A stretch of DNA of 64,000 nt from Chloroflexota bacterium (GCA_021813655.1 JAKAJU010000189.1:2229-66228), one strand, 5' to 3'. Counted from the stretch's first letter, positions 4,392-52,067 are shown. The notes: generated from the sequence alone by a model not told the origin. Program-made: numbers and translations.

Positions 4392-5801
4392 TCAGAAGCT
4401 GAAGCCGAACAGCCCGGGCGGGAGCTGGATGCCCATGACCTCGAACTTCTCGACGAACCGGGGACGGATCCCGGTCGGCTTCAGCCGGCCCTGGATGCGG
4501 CCTTCCACGACGCCCGTCTGCTCGAAGATGAAGACATCCTGCATGACGATGACGTCGCCTTCCATCCCCTGGACCTCGGTGATGTTCGTGATCTTCCGGG
4601 TCCCGTCCTTGAGGCGCGCCTGGTGAACGATCAGATCGACGGCGGAGGCGATCTGCTCGCGGATCGCGCGGAGCGGGAGCTCCACGCCGGCCATGAGGAC
4701 CATCGTCTCGAGGCGGGCGAGCATGTCGCGCGGGCTGTTCGCATGGCCCGTGCTCATCGAACCGTCGTGGCCCGTGTTCATCGCCTGGAGCATGTCGAGC
4801 GCCTCGCCGGACCGGCACTCGCCGACGATGATGCGGTCGGGCCGCATCCGGAGCGAGTTCCGGACGAGCTCCCGGATCGGGATCGCGCCACGACCCTCGA
4901 TGTTCGGCGGTCGGCTCTCGAGCGTGACCACGTGCTCCTGCCGGAGCTGCAGCTCGGCGGCGTCCTCGATCGTGATGATCCGCTCGTCGTTCGGGATGAA
5001 GGACGAGAGGACGTTCAGGGTCGTCGTCTTGCCCGAGCCGGTGCCGCCCGAGACGAACACGTTCATGCGGGCCTCGACACACGCGCGGAGGAAGTCGAAC
5101 ATCTCCGGTGTGGCCGTCCCGAATCGGACGAGGTCCTCGACGGTGAACGGGCTGGCTGCGAACTTCCGGATCGTCAGGACGGGGCCCACGAGCGAGAGCG
5201 GCGGGATGATGGCGTTGACGCGGGACCCGTCCGTGAGCCGGGCGTCGACCATCGGGCTCGACTCGTCGACGCGTCGGCCGATCGGCGCGATGATCCGGTC
5301 GATGATCCGCATGACGTGCTCGTCGTTCTGGAAGACGACGTTCGTCAGCTCGAGCTTGCCGCTCCGTTCGACGTAGACCTGGCGCGGCCCGTTGACCATG
5401 ATCTCGGTGATGCTCTCGTCGCGGAGGAGCGGCTCGAGCGGTCCGAGGCCGATGATCTCGTCGGTGATCTGCTCGAGCATCCGCACGCGTTCGGCGCGGG
5501 TGAGGGCGAGGCCCTCCTCGTCGACGACGCGGCTGAAGATCTCCTCGATCTGCCGGCGGACCTCGACCTGGTTGGAGAGGTCGAGTCGCGGGTCGAGCTC
5601 CTGGATGACGCGGGTCTGGATCCGGAACTTGACGTCGCGGAACGACTCGCGGACCGGCGCGGTGGCCAGGAGGCGCGCGGCCGAGGTCGGGGGTCCCGGC
5701 GGCATCCCGCCCGGCGCCGGAGCGACCGGGCTCGGTGCCGGCTCCGGCGCCCCCCCGGCACCCCCGGGTCTCGCGCTCTCGATGCGCTTCAGCAGGGACA
5801 T
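4392..5801 (-). CDS. tadA: Tad pilus ATPase TadA/CpaF (T2SS-E / VirB11 family)
   Basis: Walker A motif GGTGSGKTT, the ...RIIVGECRSGEA... segment, and the Asp/His boxes typical of CpaF secretion ATPases. Confidence 0.9.
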   Translation of the reverse strand: MSLLKRIESARPGGAGGAPEPAPSPVAPAPGGMPPGPPTSAARLLATAPVRESFRDVKFRIQTRVIQELDPRLDLSNQVEVRRQIEEIFSRVVDEEGLALTRAERVRMLEQITDEIIGLGPLEPLLRDESITEIMVNGPRQVYVERSGKLELTNVVFQNDEHVMRIIDRIIAPIGRRVDESSPMVDARLTDGSRVNAIIPPLSLVGPVLTIRKFAASPFTVEDLVRFGTATPEMFDFLRACVEARMNVFVSGGTGSGKTTTLNVLSSFIPNDERIITIEDAAELQLRQEHVVTLESRPPNIEGRGAIPIRELVRNSLRMRPDRIIVGECRSGEALDMLQAMNTGHDGSMSTGHANSPRDMLARLETMVLMAGVELPLRAIREQIASAVDLIVHQARLKDGTRKITNITEVQGMEGDVIVMQDVFIFEQTGVVEGRIQGRLKPTGIRPRFVEKFEVMGIQLPPGLFGFSF

Positions 5802-44264: not shown

Positions 44265-44945
44265 TCAGTCGAGCCGGCGGATGACGCCGATGAGCTTCCC
44301 CTGGATCCGCACCTCGTCGTAGAACTGCGGCGGGTAGTCCGGGTTGGCCGGCTGGAGGCGGATGCGCCCCTGCTCGCGGAAGAACCGCTTGAGCGTGACT
44401 GCGTTCTCCTCCACCTGGGCGACGACGATGTCCCCGTTCCTGGCCGTCTGCTGCGGCCGGATGACGACGTAGTCCCCGTCGGTGATGTGCGCCTCGATCA
44501 TCGAGTCGCCCCGGACGCGGAGGAGATAGGCGTCGCCGTCCGGAGACAGCATCCCCGGCACCGGCACCGTCTCGGAGACATCCTGGTAGGCCTCGATCGG
44601 TCCACCGGCGGCGATCTCGCCGACGACCGGCAGCACGTGGGAGGCGCCCGCTGTGGAGGACTGGGCGATCTCCAGCTGCAGGCCGAGCATGATCGCGGCT
44701 GCCGGGGTGAGCCGCAGGGCGCGTGGCTGCGCGGCCCGATGGGCAGCATCCGGGCCGTCGAGATAGACACGCTCGAGGTACCCGTCGCGCTCCAGGGCCT
44801 GGAGATGGTGGTGGACGGCCGACGTGGACGCGAGGTCCACGGCGCGCGCGATGTCCCGGATGGACGGAGGGAAGCCGGTCTCGCGGGTGGTGGCCGCGAT
44901 GTACTCGAGGATCCGCCGCTTACGCTCAGCGTCGTGCTTGGTCAC
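44265..44945 (-). CDS. lexA: LexA repressor
   Basis: N-terminal wHTH (RETGFPPSIRDIARAV), a cleavage site in ...VPVVGEIAAGGP..., and the S24 peptidase Ser/Lys (VRGDSM...KRF). Confidence 0.9.
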   Translation of the reverse strand: MTKHDAERKRRILEYIAATTRETGFPPSIRDIARAVDLASTSAVHHHLQALERDGYLERVYLDGPDAAHRAAQPRALRLTPAAAIMLGLQLEIAQSSTAGASHVLPVVGEIAAGGPIEAYQDVSETVPVPGMLSPDGDAYLLRVRGDSMIEAHITDGDYVVIRPQQTARNGDIVVAQVEENAVTLKRFFREQGRIRLQPANPDYPPQFYDEVRIQGKLIGVIRRLD

Positions 44946-44972
44946 CGGGACCTCCTTCGGACGCCAGACTAC

Positions 44973-44986
44973 CGAACGGGTGTTCG
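44973..44986. promoter_or_regulatory. LexA (Cheo-type) box CGAACGGGTGTTCG, embedded in the lexA promoter spacer
   Basis: Perfect CGAAC-N4-GTTCG palindrome. On the minus strand it lies between TTGACA (44989-44994) and TAGTCT (44966-44971), 17 nt apart. That is the classic architecture of an autoregulated SOS promoter. Confidence 0.6.
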
Positions 44987-45107
44987 ATTGTCAAGGGCCG
45001 GCGGGATCGCGCGCGGGCGACGGACGCCGCTGCTGGTACACTTCCGGTCCCCGGGTGCGCCGGCGATACCCGCGCGTCCGCGAAGACAGCATGGAGGATT
45101 CTCTCGC

Positions 45108-48088: not shown

Positions 48089-49390
48089 GTGGGCATGCCG
48101 GAGAGTCCGTCGATCGTCGCTCCCGACGGCGCGCGGCCCCGGCCGCGCGCCGTGTGGTCCCGTGCGCTCGCCTCCCGGATCCCGCGCTCCTGGCGCGAGG
48201 CGATCTGGATCACGCTCATCGTCCGGATCGGGCTCCTTCTCGTGGGCGTCGTCGTCTGGCTCCAGGCCGGCGCGCCCGGCCCGTGCCACTTCGAGGTCGC
48301 GCGGAACGGCTGGGCCACGATCCCCCCGCTCGACGGCTCGGGGGCCGCATTCCCGCTCGTCGGGGTCTGGCAGCGGTGGGACGCGTGCTGGTACACGAAG
48401 ATCGCCGCGTTCGGCTACGAGCCGGGCACCGACGCGACGGCATTCTTCCCGGCCTTCCCGCTCCTCATGCGGGCCGTCGCCGCGCCGCTCGCGGGCGACG
48501 TGGCGCTCGCCGGGATGGTCCTCAACCTGGTGCTGTCCGTCGTCGGGCTCGCGGGCCTGCACCGTCTCGTGACGCGCGACCTGGGGGTCCGCGTCGCGGA
48601 CAGGACCGTCGTCTACCTCTCGGTCTTCCCGGCCGCCCTGTTCCTCTACGCGCCGTTCACCGAGGCACTCTTCCTCGCGACGACGGTCTGGGCGTTCGTC
48701 GGCGCCCGCGAGCGGCGCTGGTGGCTCGCGGCGGCGGCCGCTCTCGTCGCCGGGCTGACGCGGCCCCAGGGCGTGCTCCTCGTCCTGCCGATCGCGTGGG
48801 AGGTCGCCGTCGCGTGGCGGTCGGGCGATCTCGTTCGGCCCCGCGCCGCGCCACGAGCCCTCGCCGTCCTGGACATCGTGCGTCCGTCGATCGTCGATCG
48901 GCTCGCGCCGGTCTGCGCCATCGGCGCGCCGATCGCCGGTATCGCGATCTTCGGGTGGTACACGTCCGCCGTGGCGCGCCTCCCGTTCTTCGACGCGCAG
49001 GACGCATGGGGTGGCCGCGAGTTCCACCCGCCCTGGGAGACGCTCGGGGCGGCGATCGACTGGGTCCGGGCCGGCGGCCAGTCGGCGGGGATCGAGCTCC
49101 TGAACGTGGGGCTCCTCGTGCTCTTCGCGGTCGTCGTCGTCCTCGCCGCCCGACGGCTTCCGGTCTCGTACACGCTCTACGCGACGGCATCGCTCCTGCT
49201 CATCGCCATCCGCATCCAGCCGATCCCGCTCACCTCGACCCTGCGGTTCCTCCTCGTCCTGTTCCCCGTCTTCGCCGCTCTCGGGATCGCCGGCCGGAGC
49301 CGCCGCTTCGACCTCGCGTGGACGATCGGCTCCACGCTCCTGCTCGGGCTGGCCGCAGCGACATTCGTCCGCGGGGACTTCGTCGCATGA
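48089..49390 (+). CDS. Polytopic membrane protein, PIG-V (GT76)-like paralogue
   Basis: ...WQRWDACWYTKIAAFGYEPGTDATAFFPAFP... repeats the motif of the gene at 45612. It is transcribed divergently from the gene at 46821..48035, across a 54-bp gap. Confidence 0.5.
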   Translation: MGMPESPSIVAPDGARPRPRAVWSRALASRIPRSWREAIWITLIVRIGLLLVGVVVWLQAGAPGPCHFEVARNGWATIPPLDGSGAAFPLVGVWQRWDACWYTKIAAFGYEPGTDATAFFPAFPLLMRAVAAPLAGDVALAGMVLNLVLSVVGLAGLHRLVTRDLGVRVADRTVVYLSVFPAALFLYAPFTEALFLATTVWAFVGARERRWWLAAAAALVAGLTRPQGVLLVLPIAWEVAVAWRSGDLVRPRAAPRALAVLDIVRPSIVDRLAPVCAIGAPIAGIAIFGWYTSAVARLPFFDAQDAWGGREFHPPWETLGAAIDWVRAGGQSAGIELLNVGLLVLFAVVVVLAARRLPVSYTLYATASLLLIAIRIQPIPLTSTLRFLLVLFPVFAALGIAGRSRRFDLAWTIGSTLLLGLAAATFVRGDFVA

Positions 49391-50781
49391 GCGGGACGCC
49401 CCCGCCCACCCGGCGACCGGGCCGGGGACCCGGAGATGCGCGCGCGCCGCGGATCGGCACCCCCGGCGGCCCTGGCGCCTCTCGCGCCCCCGGCACCCCT
49501 GCGACGATCCTCCATGTGGACCTCGACGCCTTCTTCGCGGCGGTCGAGCAGCGCGACCGTCCCGAGCTGCGGGGGAAGCCCGTCATCGTCGGGGGCGGCG
49601 GCCCGGACGACCGCGGCGTCGTGAGCACCGCGAGCTACGAGGCCCGGAAGTTCGGCGTCCGCTCCGCGATGCCGCTGCGCACGGCCGGCCGGCTCTGTCC
49701 CGACGGGATCTTCCTGCCGGTGGACGGCACCAAGTACCAGGCGGAGAGCCGGCGCGTGATGACGATCCTCCGGCGCTTCACGTCGCGCGTCGAGCAGGTC
49801 TCGATCGACGAGGCGTTCCTCGACGTCGCCGGGTCGGAGGCGCTCTTCGGCCCTCCCGAGCAGATCGCCCGACGGATCAAGGCCGCCATCCACGATGAGA
49901 CCGGACTCACCGCGAGCGTGGGCGTGGGGACGTCCAAGCTGATCGCGAAGATCGGCTCCGACCTGCGCAAGCCGGACGGGCTGGTGGTGGTGCCGCCGGG
50001 GGAGGAGGCCGCCTTCCTCGCGCCCCTGCCCGTCTCGCGCCTGTGGGGCGTGGGCCCGGCCACGGCCACTGCCCTCGCCGAGCTCGGCGTCGCGACGATC
50101 GGCGATCTCGCCGTCCTGCCGCCCGACGCCCTCACCCGCCGGTTCGGGAAGCATGGGGCCGACCTCGTCGAGCGCGCCCACGGCATCGACCGCGATCCGG
50201 TCCACGAGCCCGACGCCATGAAGTCGGTCGGGCACGAGACGACATTCGACCACGACACGAGCGACCCCGAGGTGCTCGAGCGGACCCTCCTCGGCCTCTC
50301 CGATGGCGTCGCATGGCGTCTGCGCGGGATGGGGATCCGTGCCGGGACGGTCGTCGTGAAGGTCCGCGATTCGGGCTTCCGCACCGTCACCCGTCAGGCC
50401 CCTCTGCCCGAGCCGACGGACCTCGCCGAGCCGATCTACCAGGCCGCCCTCGCCCTGGCGCGACCCGAGATGCGGGGGAAGCGCATCCGACTTCTGGGTG
50501 TCACCGCGACGCACCTCGACGCGCCCGACCAGCTCGGGCTCTTCTCAGCCGACGAGGATCGACGGCACCGGGCGATGGAAGCCGCCGACGCACTCAAGCG
50601 GAAGTTCGGCGACCGGACGATCGTCCGGGCGCGCCTCCTCGACAAGGGGCTGCCGGCGCCGTTCGAGCGCGACCCGTCGTCGCCACTGGCGCGTCGCGGT
50701 GTGGACGAAGCGTCCGACGAGCCGGAGCCGGTGACACGCGAGCGCGAGCCGGACGCGGATGCAGGCACGGAGGACGTGTAG
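49387..50781 (+). CDS. dinB: DNA polymerase IV (Y-family, DinB)
   Basis: ...ILHVDLDAFFAAVEQRDRPELRGKPVIVGG...SIDEAFLDV... gives the Y-family catalytic motifs. The ATG overlaps the stop of the upstream membrane-protein gene (ATGA). Confidence 0.85.
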   Translation: MSGTPPPTRRPGRGPGDARAPRIGTPGGPGASRAPGTPATILHVDLDAFFAAVEQRDRPELRGKPVIVGGGGPDDRGVVSTASYEARKFGVRSAMPLRTAGRLCPDGIFLPVDGTKYQAESRRVMTILRRFTSRVEQVSIDEAFLDVAGSEALFGPPEQIARRIKAAIHDETGLTASVGVGTSKLIAKIGSDLRKPDGLVVVPPGEEAAFLAPLPVSRLWGVGPATATALAELGVATIGDLAVLPPDALTRRFGKHGADLVERAHGIDRDPVHEPDAMKSVGHETTFDHDTSDPEVLERTLLGLSDGVAWRLRGMGIRAGTVVVKVRDSGFRTVTRQAPLPEPTDLAEPIYQAALALARPEMRGKRIRLLGVTATHLDAPDQLGLFSADEDRRHRAMEAADALKRKFGDRTIVRARLLDKGLPAPFERDPSSPLARRGVDEASDEPEPVTREREPDADAGTEDV

Positions 50782-50796
50782 GGCGGCCCTTCCCCT

Positions 50797-50853
50797 CTTG
50801 ACATCGAACATCCGTTCGGTCTACAGTCGTCGTCGTAATCGAACGGTTGTTCA
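50797..50853 (+). promoter_or_regulatory. SOS-type promoter with two LexA (Cheo) boxes: CGAACATCCGTTCG (50805-50818) and CGAACGGTTGTTCA (50840-50853)
   Basis: TTGACA (50797-50802) and TACAGT (50822-50827) bracket the first, perfect palindrome. A second box with one mismatch lies just downstream of the -10 element. Confidence 0.55.
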
Positions 50854-50901
50854 GTCGCCGAGTGCCCCGCGCGACGCTGCAATGCCGAAAGGAGCCGACC
50901 G

Positions 50902-51177
50902 ATGGCGATGGTCCGCGTGCAGCCGATCCGCGTGGACGTGCGCACCGACTGGTTCACCGGGACTCCGCGCGAGATCGTCGTGGACGGCCTGCGGGTCCCG
51001 GTCATGAAGGTGTCGGCGGTCCGCAGGGAGGTCTCCGCGTTCCCGGTCTCGACCGGACCGCGCACCGTCTTCGAGGTCCTCACGCGCGAGGCGCGCGTGG
51101 CGCTGTCGTTCCGCCACCGCTCCCGCAAGTGGGAGATCGAGGCGTACGAGCGGGTGGGGGATCTGCGCGCCGCCTGA
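50902..51177 (+). CDS. Hypothetical 91-aa protein, predicted LexA-regulated
   Basis: ATG preceded by an AAGGAG SD 8 nt upstream. The ORF starts about 50 bp downstream of the tandem Cheo boxes. The protein (MAMVRVQPIRVDVRTDWFTGTPREIVVDGLRVPVMKV...) is not a family I recognise. Confidence 0.5.
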   Translation: MAMVRVQPIRVDVRTDWFTGTPREIVVDGLRVPVMKVSAVRREVSAFPVSTGPRTVFEVLTREARVALSFRHRSRKWEIEAYERVGDLRAA

Positions 51178-51404
51178 GCCCGGTCCATCGCCGGGCGCTG
51201 ACCGGCGGGTCCGCGCGCGTCTCGCGCGTGCGGGCGTGGCGCCCGCACCATATTTGCGGTCGCGCGCCGACGCGGCTGCACCGTGACCTTGGGAGGACGC
51301 GGCCGGTACGCGCCCTTCCAGGGTCGCCACTTTCGGGCCGAAGCGGCCCCCGGGCACGGTCCGTCGGCCGTGTCGCGGCACGCGCGTGTCGCTACGATCG
51401 GCGC

Positions 51405-52067
51405 ATGGCGGAACGGCATGGCGCGTTCGGCGACGAGACGCTCAGAGGCTTCGTCGCGCACCTCTCCTCGGCCGAGCCCATCCCGGGAGGCGGAAGCGCC
51501 GCGGCGGTGGGAGCCGCCATCGCGGCAGCGCTCGTCGCGATGGTCGCGTCGCTCTCGCGGGATCGACCCCTGTATGCGCAGTACCTCGTGTCGATCGAGC
51601 GATGCGAAGCGGAGGGCAGGCGGCTCTCCGAACGCTGCCTCTCGCTCGCGGACGAGGATTCGGCGGCGTACGGACGCTTCGCCGCCGCCATGAAGATGCC
51701 GCGGGAGACGGACGACGAGAAGGCGCGCCGCACGGCCGCTCTCGGGGAGGCCGCGACGGTGGCGGCACAGGTCCCGCTGGCGGTCGTCCTCGCCTGCCGC
51801 GAGATCGCGTCCGCCGCGGAGGAGCTCGCCGGCCGCAGCAACCGCAACGCCGCGAGCGATCTCGGCGTCGCGGCGCACTTCTCCGTCGCGGCTGCGCACT
51901 CCGCCGCCGAGAACGTGCGCGTGAACCTTCCGTCCGTCCCTGATCGGGAGCTCGCTGACGACCTGGAGTTCCGCACGACCGAGGCGCTCGCGGACGTCGA
52001 GCGCATCGCCCGCGCCGTTCGCGCGGTCGTCGCCGCCGGGAGTCTCCGCGAGCCCGTCGCGGAATGA
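51405..52067 (+). CDS. fchA: Methenyl-THF cyclohydrolase / formimino-THF cyclodeaminase (FTCD_C/FchA family)
   Basis: ...FVAHLSSAEPIPGGGSAAAVGAAIAAALVAMVASLS... is the cyclodeaminase-domain signature. Confidence 0.7.
   Translation: MAERHGAFGDETLRGFVAHLSSAEPIPGGGSAAAVGAAIAAALVAMVASLSRDRPLYAQYLVSIERCEAEGRRLSERCLSLADEDSAAYGRFAAAMKMPRETDDEKARRTAALGEAATVAAQVPLAVVLACREIASAAEELAGRSNRNAASDLGVAAHFSVAAAHSAAENVRVNLPSVPDRELADDLEFRTTEALADVERIARAVRAVVAAGSLREPVAE

Follow-up and report, generated by a model that had tools for sequence, protein, structure and literature searches.

A conserved pair of predicted LexA operators precedes a small gene beside dinB in Limnocylindria that may encode a free-standing, ImuB-C-like accessory of DNA polymerase IV

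Which function lies behind two LexA boxes at positions 50,797 to 51,177 of a 64,000-nucleotide (nt) stretch of DNA from a Chloroflexota bacterium (GCA_021813655.1 JAKAJU010000189.1:2229-66228; hereafter the window, with coordinates on the plus strand unless stated otherwise), where a consensus-like promoter leads into an open reading frame (ORF) for a 91-residue protein that the initial annotation could assign to no family? The reading that we favor, at a probability of roughly 55%, is that the product is a LexA-repressed, damage-inducible accessory of the adjacent Y-family DNA polymerase DinB (Pol IV) and resembles ImuB-C, the domain at the C-terminus of ImuB in the ImuA-ImuB-DnaE2 mutasome. 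Of the three functions suggested at the outset, polymerase accessory factor is thus favored, because the protein is a probable remote relative of ImuB-C and is linked to dinB; division inhibitor and toxin have become less attractive.

The control region has a compact layout. A -35 hexamer, TTGACA (50798-50803, from sequence reading and a promoter scan), and a -10 hexamer, TACAGT (50822-50827), are separated by an 18-nt spacer and together score 10 of 12 matches; this is the sole sigma-70-like site that the scan reports in 50300-51700, compared with 0.0 sites in shuffled sequence. The spacer is occupied by the first LexA operator, CGAACATCCGTTCG (50805-50818), a perfect CGAAC-N4-GTTCG palindrome that agrees with the Gram-positive/Chloroflexi-type operator GAAC-N4-GTTC. 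The second operator, CGAACGGTTGTTCA (50840-50853), has one outer-base mismatch. Its start lies 12 nt past the -10 hexamer, within the early transcribed region, at about +6 to +19 if transcription starts ~7 nt past the -10. A strong Shine-Dalgarno site, GAAAGGAG (50887-50894), lies 7 nt 5' of the ATG at 50902. Every element that the initial annotation had named here, from TTGACA through the two boxes to the start codon, is found where it was placed; its distance of "22 bp" to the second box is roughly right when counted from the end of box 1 (21 nt) but not when counted from the -10 hexamer.

The window contains its own reference for the motif. The lexA gene (44265-44945, minus strand; LexA_DNA_bind and Peptidase_S24 domains) has a promoter with a single LexA operator (44973-44986, minus strand) between TTGACA (44989-44994) and TAGTCT (44966-44971); read on the minus strand, the sequence is TTGACA-ATCGAACACCCGTTCGG-TAGTCT, which bears out the proposed likeness of the two promoters. 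Perfect GAAC-N4-GTTC sites occur three times in the 64 kb, as boxes 1 and 2 and at 44974-44985, compared with a chance expectation of ~0.4 per 64 kb estimated from the G+C content of 71.4%. When one mismatch is allowed, there are 23 matches in the window versus 18.7 expected; such boxes are not enriched, and therefore only the perfect sites are informative.

We took upstream regions from ~90 related loci, with protein identity down to about 30%, and found two boxes upstream of the orthologue in every locus examined, despite divergence of the surrounding sequence. Both are perfect GAAC-N4-GTTC sites in all loci but one (L036, where the second box has a single core mismatch), and their starts are 33-35 bp apart in 79 of 88 loci. 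TTGAC stands 8 nt ahead of box 1 in all related loci; box 1 sits 1-3 nt past TTGAC(A/G), within the -35/-10 spacer, the -10 equivalents at the same position read TAGNGT, TACTGT or TAGCCT, and the Shine-Dalgarno sequence (G)AAGGAG is kept. Over 92 loci (815 kb), 182 perfect boxes are found upstream of the 91-residue gene, 46 at lexA and 3 in an "other" class; two of these three are box 1 of L091 and L092, which fall just past the window limit of the count and belong to the small gene, leaving a single perfect box truly elsewhere in 815 kb. In L050, L064 and L083 (about 4800-5000) the 5' untranslated region (UTR) from box 2 to the ATG is ~150 nt long, compared with ~55 nt elsewhere; these three loci were considered as exceptions to the box pattern and dismissed as such, the longer 5' UTR accounting for them. 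The conserved pair provides strong phylogenetic footprinting for what we predict to be two functional LexA operators, and the proposal that they are genuine is further supported by the identity of the motif with that at the lexA promoter and by the overlap with the core promoter. Because lexA has one box and the small gene two, the latter is likely to be repressed more tightly and induced later than lexA; the timing in particular leans on the well-studied E. coli SOS system.

By its coding statistics, the ORF (50902-51177, stop codon 51175-51177) is a real gene under purifying selection: G+C is 0.97 at third and 0.49 at second codon positions, and dN/dS against close relatives is 0.10-0.13. 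A sequence search returned 194 homologues and a profile search 582, and relatives are encoded in 351 species-representative genomes, whose labels are nearly all Chloroflexota, Limnocylindria or Limnocylindrales. An exhaustive hidden Markov model (HMM) search of 1.84 billion cluster representatives yielded only 159 clusters, and the family is therefore narrow; Limnocylindria are represented in these searches by metagenome-derived sequences only. The members form three subfamilies with a mutual identity of about 30-40% and the common residues M1, P22, R41, E43, A46, G52-P53-R54, R76 and W77, and the gene is single-copy, vertically inherited and core in its lineage. Where source names are given for members, they read "hypothetical protein," and scans of Pfam and NCBIfam with the 91-residue protein gave no matching model, in accordance with the initial failure to recognize a family; a StbC match was discarded as noise (15 bits versus a cutoff of 100). 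With purifying selection, family-wide boxes and no Pfam or NCBIfam family, the gene stands as the unannotated candidate member of the SOS regulon that it had been proposed to be.

A few records in the collection are irregular. Five contigs with the same lexA/dinB/small gene/fchA locus (L015, L027, L037, L040 and L053) carry the labels Deferrimicrobiaceae, Dormiibacterota, Eisenbacteria, Patescibacteria and Methylomirabilota and are probably mis-binned Limnocylindria. In the 516-residue protein P0182, the family's C-terminal half follows an N-terminal stretch unrelated to it, which may reflect either an error of gene calling or a genuine fusion, and the P0270 cluster carries the source name "ATP phosphoribosyltransferase," likely a misannotation.

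What kind of protein is this? Structure prediction, suggested in the initial annotation as a check, gave a confident all-beta model: the AlphaFold2 model, built on a 34-sequence alignment, has a predicted local distance difference test score (pLDDT) of 87.8 and a predicted template modeling score of 0.77, with six beta strands, one short helix and the last few residues disordered, and Foldseek found no PDB match with E < 0.2. The ImuB-C domain was defined by Aravind et al. and is mostly encoded together with Pol IV (DinB) and LexA; its signature is a tryptophan of high conservation close to the C-terminus, along with two or more conserved basic residues (PMC3765255). It is reported to be a beta-barrel of an apparently novel fold without PDB relatives (PMC12926913), and Timinskas and Venclovas have described modules composed of an active PolY, a free-standing ImuB-C and RecA (PMC6511836, PMC12926913).

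We compared the family with two sets of ImuB-C sequences by hhalign, one consisting of ImuB genes from actinobacterial plasmids plus 120 ImuB C-terminal fragments and the other, independent, of the C-termini of four ImuB proteins that belong to Alpha-, Beta- and Gammaproteobacteria and Nitrospirota. The match to three ImuB-C sequences had P = 0.024, that to 120 actinobacterial ImuB-C sequences P = 0.0013 (score 22.6 over 65 columns) and that to a second alignment of ImuB-C P = 0.0026; as a null, scores averaged 10.9 over 200 column shuffles (standard deviation 2.15, maximum 19.8) and stood at 11.2 for the reversed profile. The proteobacterial and Nitrospirota set matched in the same register with P = 0.0012, a score reached in 0 of 200 shuffles, and with the merged ImuB-C profile the score was 31.2 (P = 2.3e-5, 75.9% probability, 64 columns), a rise on merging that is expected of true remote homology, and the register was the same throughout. 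As a yardstick, the two bona fide ImuB-C groups reach only P = 1e-6 when matched with each other. Reciprocal HMM-to-sequence scores were 10.7 and 13.7 bits, compared with at most 6.9 bits for reversed or shuffled decoys.

The predicted structures point the same way. When an actinobacterial ImuB-C was modeled with AlphaFold2 (pLDDT 86.2), its six strands came in the same order as those of the 91-residue protein under the hhalign register, with similar lengths, and this model too has no PDB match with E < 0.2. Both domains end in a closing motif R/x-W-x-V/L-E/H-G/A, and over the three subfamilies W77 and R41 are invariant and R54 and R76 at least 90% conserved, which fits the published ImuB-C signature (PMC3765255). 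We conclude that the small protein is a probable free-standing, divergent member of the ImuB-C superfamily. One source of ImuB-C sequence was a Ca. Manganitrophus plasmid (L109), on which a lexA-imuA-like-imuB-dnaE2 cassette with a gene for an SOS response-associated peptidase (SRAP) close by matches the published associations. On the Deinococcus deserti plasmid NC_012527, no annotated lexA/imuY/dnaE2 cassette was present in seven stretches covering ~317 of 325 kb, and a local tblastn search with LexA, DinB and DnaE2 against 241 kb of it found nothing; a tblastn search of plasmids with DnaE2 gave no Deinococcus record among the matches listed.

The proposed partner, dinB (49387-50781), ends just upstream on the same strand and encodes a polymerase with IMS, IMS_HHH and IMS_C domains and intact catalytic motifs, both DxD and DE being present. 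Its C-terminal part carries the clamp motif QLGLF (50530-50544) and a RecA-NT-like motif, RRHRAMEAADALKRKFGDRTIVRA (50560-50640); the motif RRHRAMEAADALKRKFGDRTIVRARLL can be aligned to the N-terminus of a RecA and is the counterpart of the RecA-NT-like motif described in PMC6511836. Next come a conserved LPAPFERDP tail (50650-50676; RRFDFGERP in a second subfamily) and an acidic end, and the basic small protein (pI 11.2) would fit this acidic end, in support of a partnership. We infer that it may dock on the DinB tail. The gene order is in line with this: dinB lies 5' of the small gene, on the same strand and within 5 kb, in all loci with enough sequence, mostly adjacent to it, and the order dinB-small gene-fchA-folD(-fhs) holds in the three subfamilies even with different outer flanks; lexA is within 5 kb in about half of the loci. 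In L075 the dinB-small gene pair is kept with no fchA downstream, and both boxes are kept in this locus as well as in all loci with insertions. As judged from the boxes, it is in most of these genomes the accessory and not the polymerase that carries the predicted direct SOS control.

The surroundings of dinB offer two further observations. The dinB ATG (49387-49390) overlaps the stop codon of an upstream 433-residue membrane-protein ORF (ATGA), and because of this overlap the two are probably co-transcribed. In one sublineage (L085 and L086, 2890-4873), dinB directly follows lexA on the same strand, with a LexA box ahead of the two; they form a lexA-dinB operon, and dinB is SOS-controlled there, unlike in the window. 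No dnaE2 is present in the neighborhood of the small gene, and the window has no tRNA or transfer-messenger RNA gene.

Two features that go beyond the initial annotation, a C-terminal Ala-Ala and a covarying 5'-UTR hairpin, bear on how the product might be controlled after transcription. Ala-Ala ends 216 of 220 family members, compared with an Ala frequency of 12%; neither the residue before it (K, R, P, Q or E) nor the linker or tail length is fixed. Residues 89-91 have pLDDT < 50 in the AlphaFold2 model and thus form a disordered tail, and ImuB itself ends at the barrel without such a tail. The SOS protein RecN of E. coli, a ClpXP substrate, ends in -LAA. The conserved end is suggestive of an ssrA-like degron of the ClpXP C-motif 1 type.

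Directly after box 2, the 5' UTR can fold into a hairpin, GTCGCCG-AGTGCCC-CGCGCGAC (50854-50875), with covarying stems and a GUGCCC loop. The loop is nearly invariant, 84 of 88 loci having the motif [GA]TG[CT][CT]C, and the stems vary between lineages yet keep their complementarity. Fourteen seeds chosen by eye were aligned without gaps, with the loop as the anchor; in this alignment 81.6% of cells pair versus 53.5% in shuffles, covariation is 0.736 versus 0.264 (0 of 500 shuffles as high; 0.09-0.23 in slid registers), and double changes are seen in six of the seven pairs. To remove the bias of seed choice, all 58 distinct sequences were put through an arm-swap test, in which a sequence's own arms gave -9.54 kcal/mol compared with -7.63 for swapped arms (standard deviation 0.29) and 0 of 200 permutations were as low. 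With a covariance model, the hairpin is located at the expected position in ~60 loci, and in the window at 50854-50875. RNAalifold, run on a MAFFT alignment of the 5' UTRs in which the stems are misaligned, returned no structure, and Rfam has no match in 50700-51500, ZTP and THF riboswitches included. The hairpin could stabilize the mRNA, gate translation or bind a factor.

Does the promoter serve the small gene, or the folate genes beyond it? The gene fchA (FTCD_C; 51405-52067) follows downstream and is itself followed by folD and fhs, and it has been suggested that the ORF might turn out to be merely the 5' UTR of fchA. We reject this possibility, since the protein that the ORF encodes is conserved, a separate -10 element precedes fchA and hairpins stand between the two genes. 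The -10 element, TACGAT (51393-51398), lies 6 nt before the fchA ATG, a leaderless layout in the window, and -10-like elements (TACAAT, GAGAAT, CCAGAAT) were seen by eye in the same intergenic region of five relatives, directly before the called fchA start in L089-L091 and ~50-65 nt upstream in L084, L085 and L087. A terminator-like hairpin with a 9-bp G+C-rich stem, GTGCGGGCG-TGG-CGCCCGCAC followed by CATATTTG (51228-51256), starts 51 nt past the stop codon of the small gene; it falls just under the T-run threshold of the terminator scan, which listed no canonical terminator in 50300-51700. With fchA having its own -10 and hairpins standing in between, the small gene is most likely monocistronic and no leader of fchA. 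A second hairpin between the genes (51287-51323), with a long G+C-rich stem and a CCGGTAC loop, has its motif in 45 of 87 related loci, with differing stems, and could be a terminator without a U-tail or a regulatory element of fchA.

These elements can be joined into a mechanism for the proposed DinB accessory. In the undamaged cell, two LexA dimers would keep the gene off, one blocking RNA polymerase between the -35 and the -10 and the other acting as a roadblock just past the start site. Upon damage, RecA-stimulated cleavage of LexA would free the promoter, and the protein would be made from its strong ribosome-binding site and would join DinB, probably via the conserved tail that follows the RecA-NT-like motif, to give a PolY/ImuB-C(/RecA) assembly of a kind already inferred in Geobacter, Clostridia and Deinococcus. 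Once LexA re-forms, the Ala-Ala on the disordered tail may bring about rapid ClpXP-type removal, and a further layer of control may come from the conserved 5'-UTR hairpin in the RNA. The analysis shows the operator sequences and their conservation, the coding status of the ORF, the synteny, the class of fold and the similarity of profiles; that LexA binds, that damage induces the gene, that its product contacts DinB and that the tail is a degron is what we infer. A more elaborate version, possible but doubtful, would make the protein a licensing switch for a Pol IV whose expression is constitutive, set by the LexA operators at transcription, the hairpin at the RNA and the Ala-Ala degron at the protein.

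Several points weigh against an ImuB-C-like accessory of DinB. The homology to ImuB-C, at 76% probability, is under the level usually accepted from sequence alone; the comparison was made with ImuB-borne domains and not with validated free-standing ones such as GSU0042 or Deide_1p01890; and to our knowledge the role of ImuB-C itself has not been established experimentally. All members belong to one lineage, so that the synteny with dinB may be inherited and not selected, and the linkage to fchA-folD is about as constant as that to dinB. In about 12 loci, insertions stand between dinB and the small gene, and dinB has no upstream LexA box in the window or in the related loci other than the lexA-dinB loci L085 and L086; the two genes are therefore not co-regulated in the manner of umuDC or of the Geobacter operon. 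Nor is an Ala-Ala end by itself proof of a degron.

What else could the protein be? One can picture an SOS checkpoint protein, an analogue of SulA, YneA or ChiZ that is made late, blocks cell division or replication initiation and is quickly proteolysed, its link to dinB being nothing but inherited order. The small size of the gene and the tight repression expected of double operators would suit such a protein, as would the rapid clearance implied by the C-terminal Ala-Ala, the breaking of dinB synteny by insertions in some loci and the lack, in the window, of any other division-inhibitor candidate with a LexA box. We nevertheless regard it as unlikely, since the protein has no SulA similarity in Pfam, its soluble all-beta model has neither the LysM nor the membrane-spanning helix of the Gram-positive inhibitors, and both the ImuB-C profile similarity and the matching strand order would have to be coincidental. 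An SOS-induced toxin or growth inhibitor, silenced by the two operators and the structured 5' UTR, is hardly to be expected: double repression, the 5'-UTR hairpin and a possible degron do resemble the layered control of TisB or SymE, but no antitoxin or antisense partner was identified (the antisense promoters of the relatives were not scanned), hydrophobic or nuclease features are lacking, and a single-copy, vertically inherited core gene of fixed synteny is unlike mobile toxin modules.

The ImuB-C likeness could also be read without Pol IV, with the protein as a sensor that binds damaged or single-stranded DNA in general repair, the role that Aravind et al. proposed for the domain. Its basic character and conserved arginines, its own promoter separate from that of dinB and the published association of free-standing ImuB-C genes also with Ku/ligase, photolyase or SRAP (PMC3765255) are compatible with this. 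That dinB is always found at most 5 kb upstream on the same strand in loci with enough sequence, that the DinB tail is conserved and acidic as would fit a basic partner, and that in ImuB the domain is modeled as a protein-protein interface with DnaE2 and ImuA and not as a DNA binder (PMC12926913) make the sensor an improbable choice. Finally, the LexA promoter might mainly serve fchA-folD-fhs, boosting nucleotide supply after damage, with the 91-residue ORF as a leader or regulator. The order small gene-fchA-folD(-fhs) is conserved in most loci and the scan gave no canonical terminator, but the -10 element of fchA in the window and those seen by eye in five relatives, the strong conserved hairpins between the genes, the purifying selection on the small protein's sequence and the retention of the boxes despite insertions before fchA (about 9 loci) and in the fchA-less L075 render this very improbable. 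Each of these readings is less well supported than that of an ImuB-C-like accessory of DinB.

How does this accessory relate to known systems? It shares with the free-standing ImuB-C proteins a length of 80-100 residues, an all-beta structure without PDB relatives, a tryptophan on the C-terminal side, basic residues, a place adjoining a Y-family polymerase with a RecA-NT-like motif and, as predicted here, LexA control. It differs in that the similarity is remote and the family is missed by all Pfam and NCBIfam models, in having its own promoter with two operators beside a box-less dinB in place of a lexA-led operon, in its disordered Ala-Ala tail and 5'-UTR hairpin, in lacking a nearby dnaE2 and in being confined to Limnocylindria-type Chloroflexota. 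With mutasomal ImuB's C-terminal domain it has in common the order of the six strands and the W-x-V/L-E/H-G/A close; the WAGPW and ERWW motifs of ImuB-C are replaced by AVR(D/R)E...A(F/Y)P in the family. In ImuB, the RecA-NT motif and ImuB-C follow one another on a single polypeptide, whereas here the motif comes at the end of DinB and the gene after it encodes the domain, so that dinB and the small gene look like a split ImuB layout in which the polymerase is catalytically intact and the domain is a separate polypeptide.

UmuD' and YolD/YqjX are likewise small, beta-rich, SOS-induced proteins encoded beside a Y-family polymerase, with docking on its C-terminal tail proposed, and UmuD is also cleared by proteolysis. 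However, the family has neither the S24 peptidase domain nor the self-cleavage site of UmuD, no Peptidase_S24 or YolD (PF08863) match was found for the window protein at E <= 10 or for 59 members at E <= 1, and the SH3-like core of UmuD' and YolD is absent from ImuB-C (PMC12926913). DUF6504 (PF20114) matches 7 of the 59 members weakly, over most of the model and with a best E of 0.0045, all under the gathering score (one printed score is 16.4 bits versus a threshold of 24.2 bits); it matches neither the window protein nor the ImuB C-termini, and a literature search found no mention of it. RecN and the ssrA-like ClpXP substrates share SOS induction and the Ala-Ala end with the family, the difference being that the preceding residue is variable and not Leu.

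A small LexA-controlled accessory beside a Y-family polymerase is an idea already in the literature, from comparative genomics of other phyla, and the present case refines it and does not overturn it. ImuB-C is the least understood module of bacterial mutasomes, with no solved structure, assay or agreed role, and a compact free-standing protein of this type would be a handy way into the function of the domain. The pair described here is of note for its combination of an active Pol IV with a 91-residue member that alone appears to be under direct LexA control and that has what looks like a degron. The pair also widens the SOS regulon to take in Limnocylindria, a Chloroflexota class of soil and freshwater, and supplies two testable regulatory elements, the tandem operators and the covarying 5'-UTR hairpin. 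If the licensing switch outlined above is true, translesion activity in these bacteria would be set by the rise and fall of a 10-kDa ImuB-C-like subunit and not by the amount of polymerase, and in the hairpin an SOS gene would have a new cis-regulatory RNA element.

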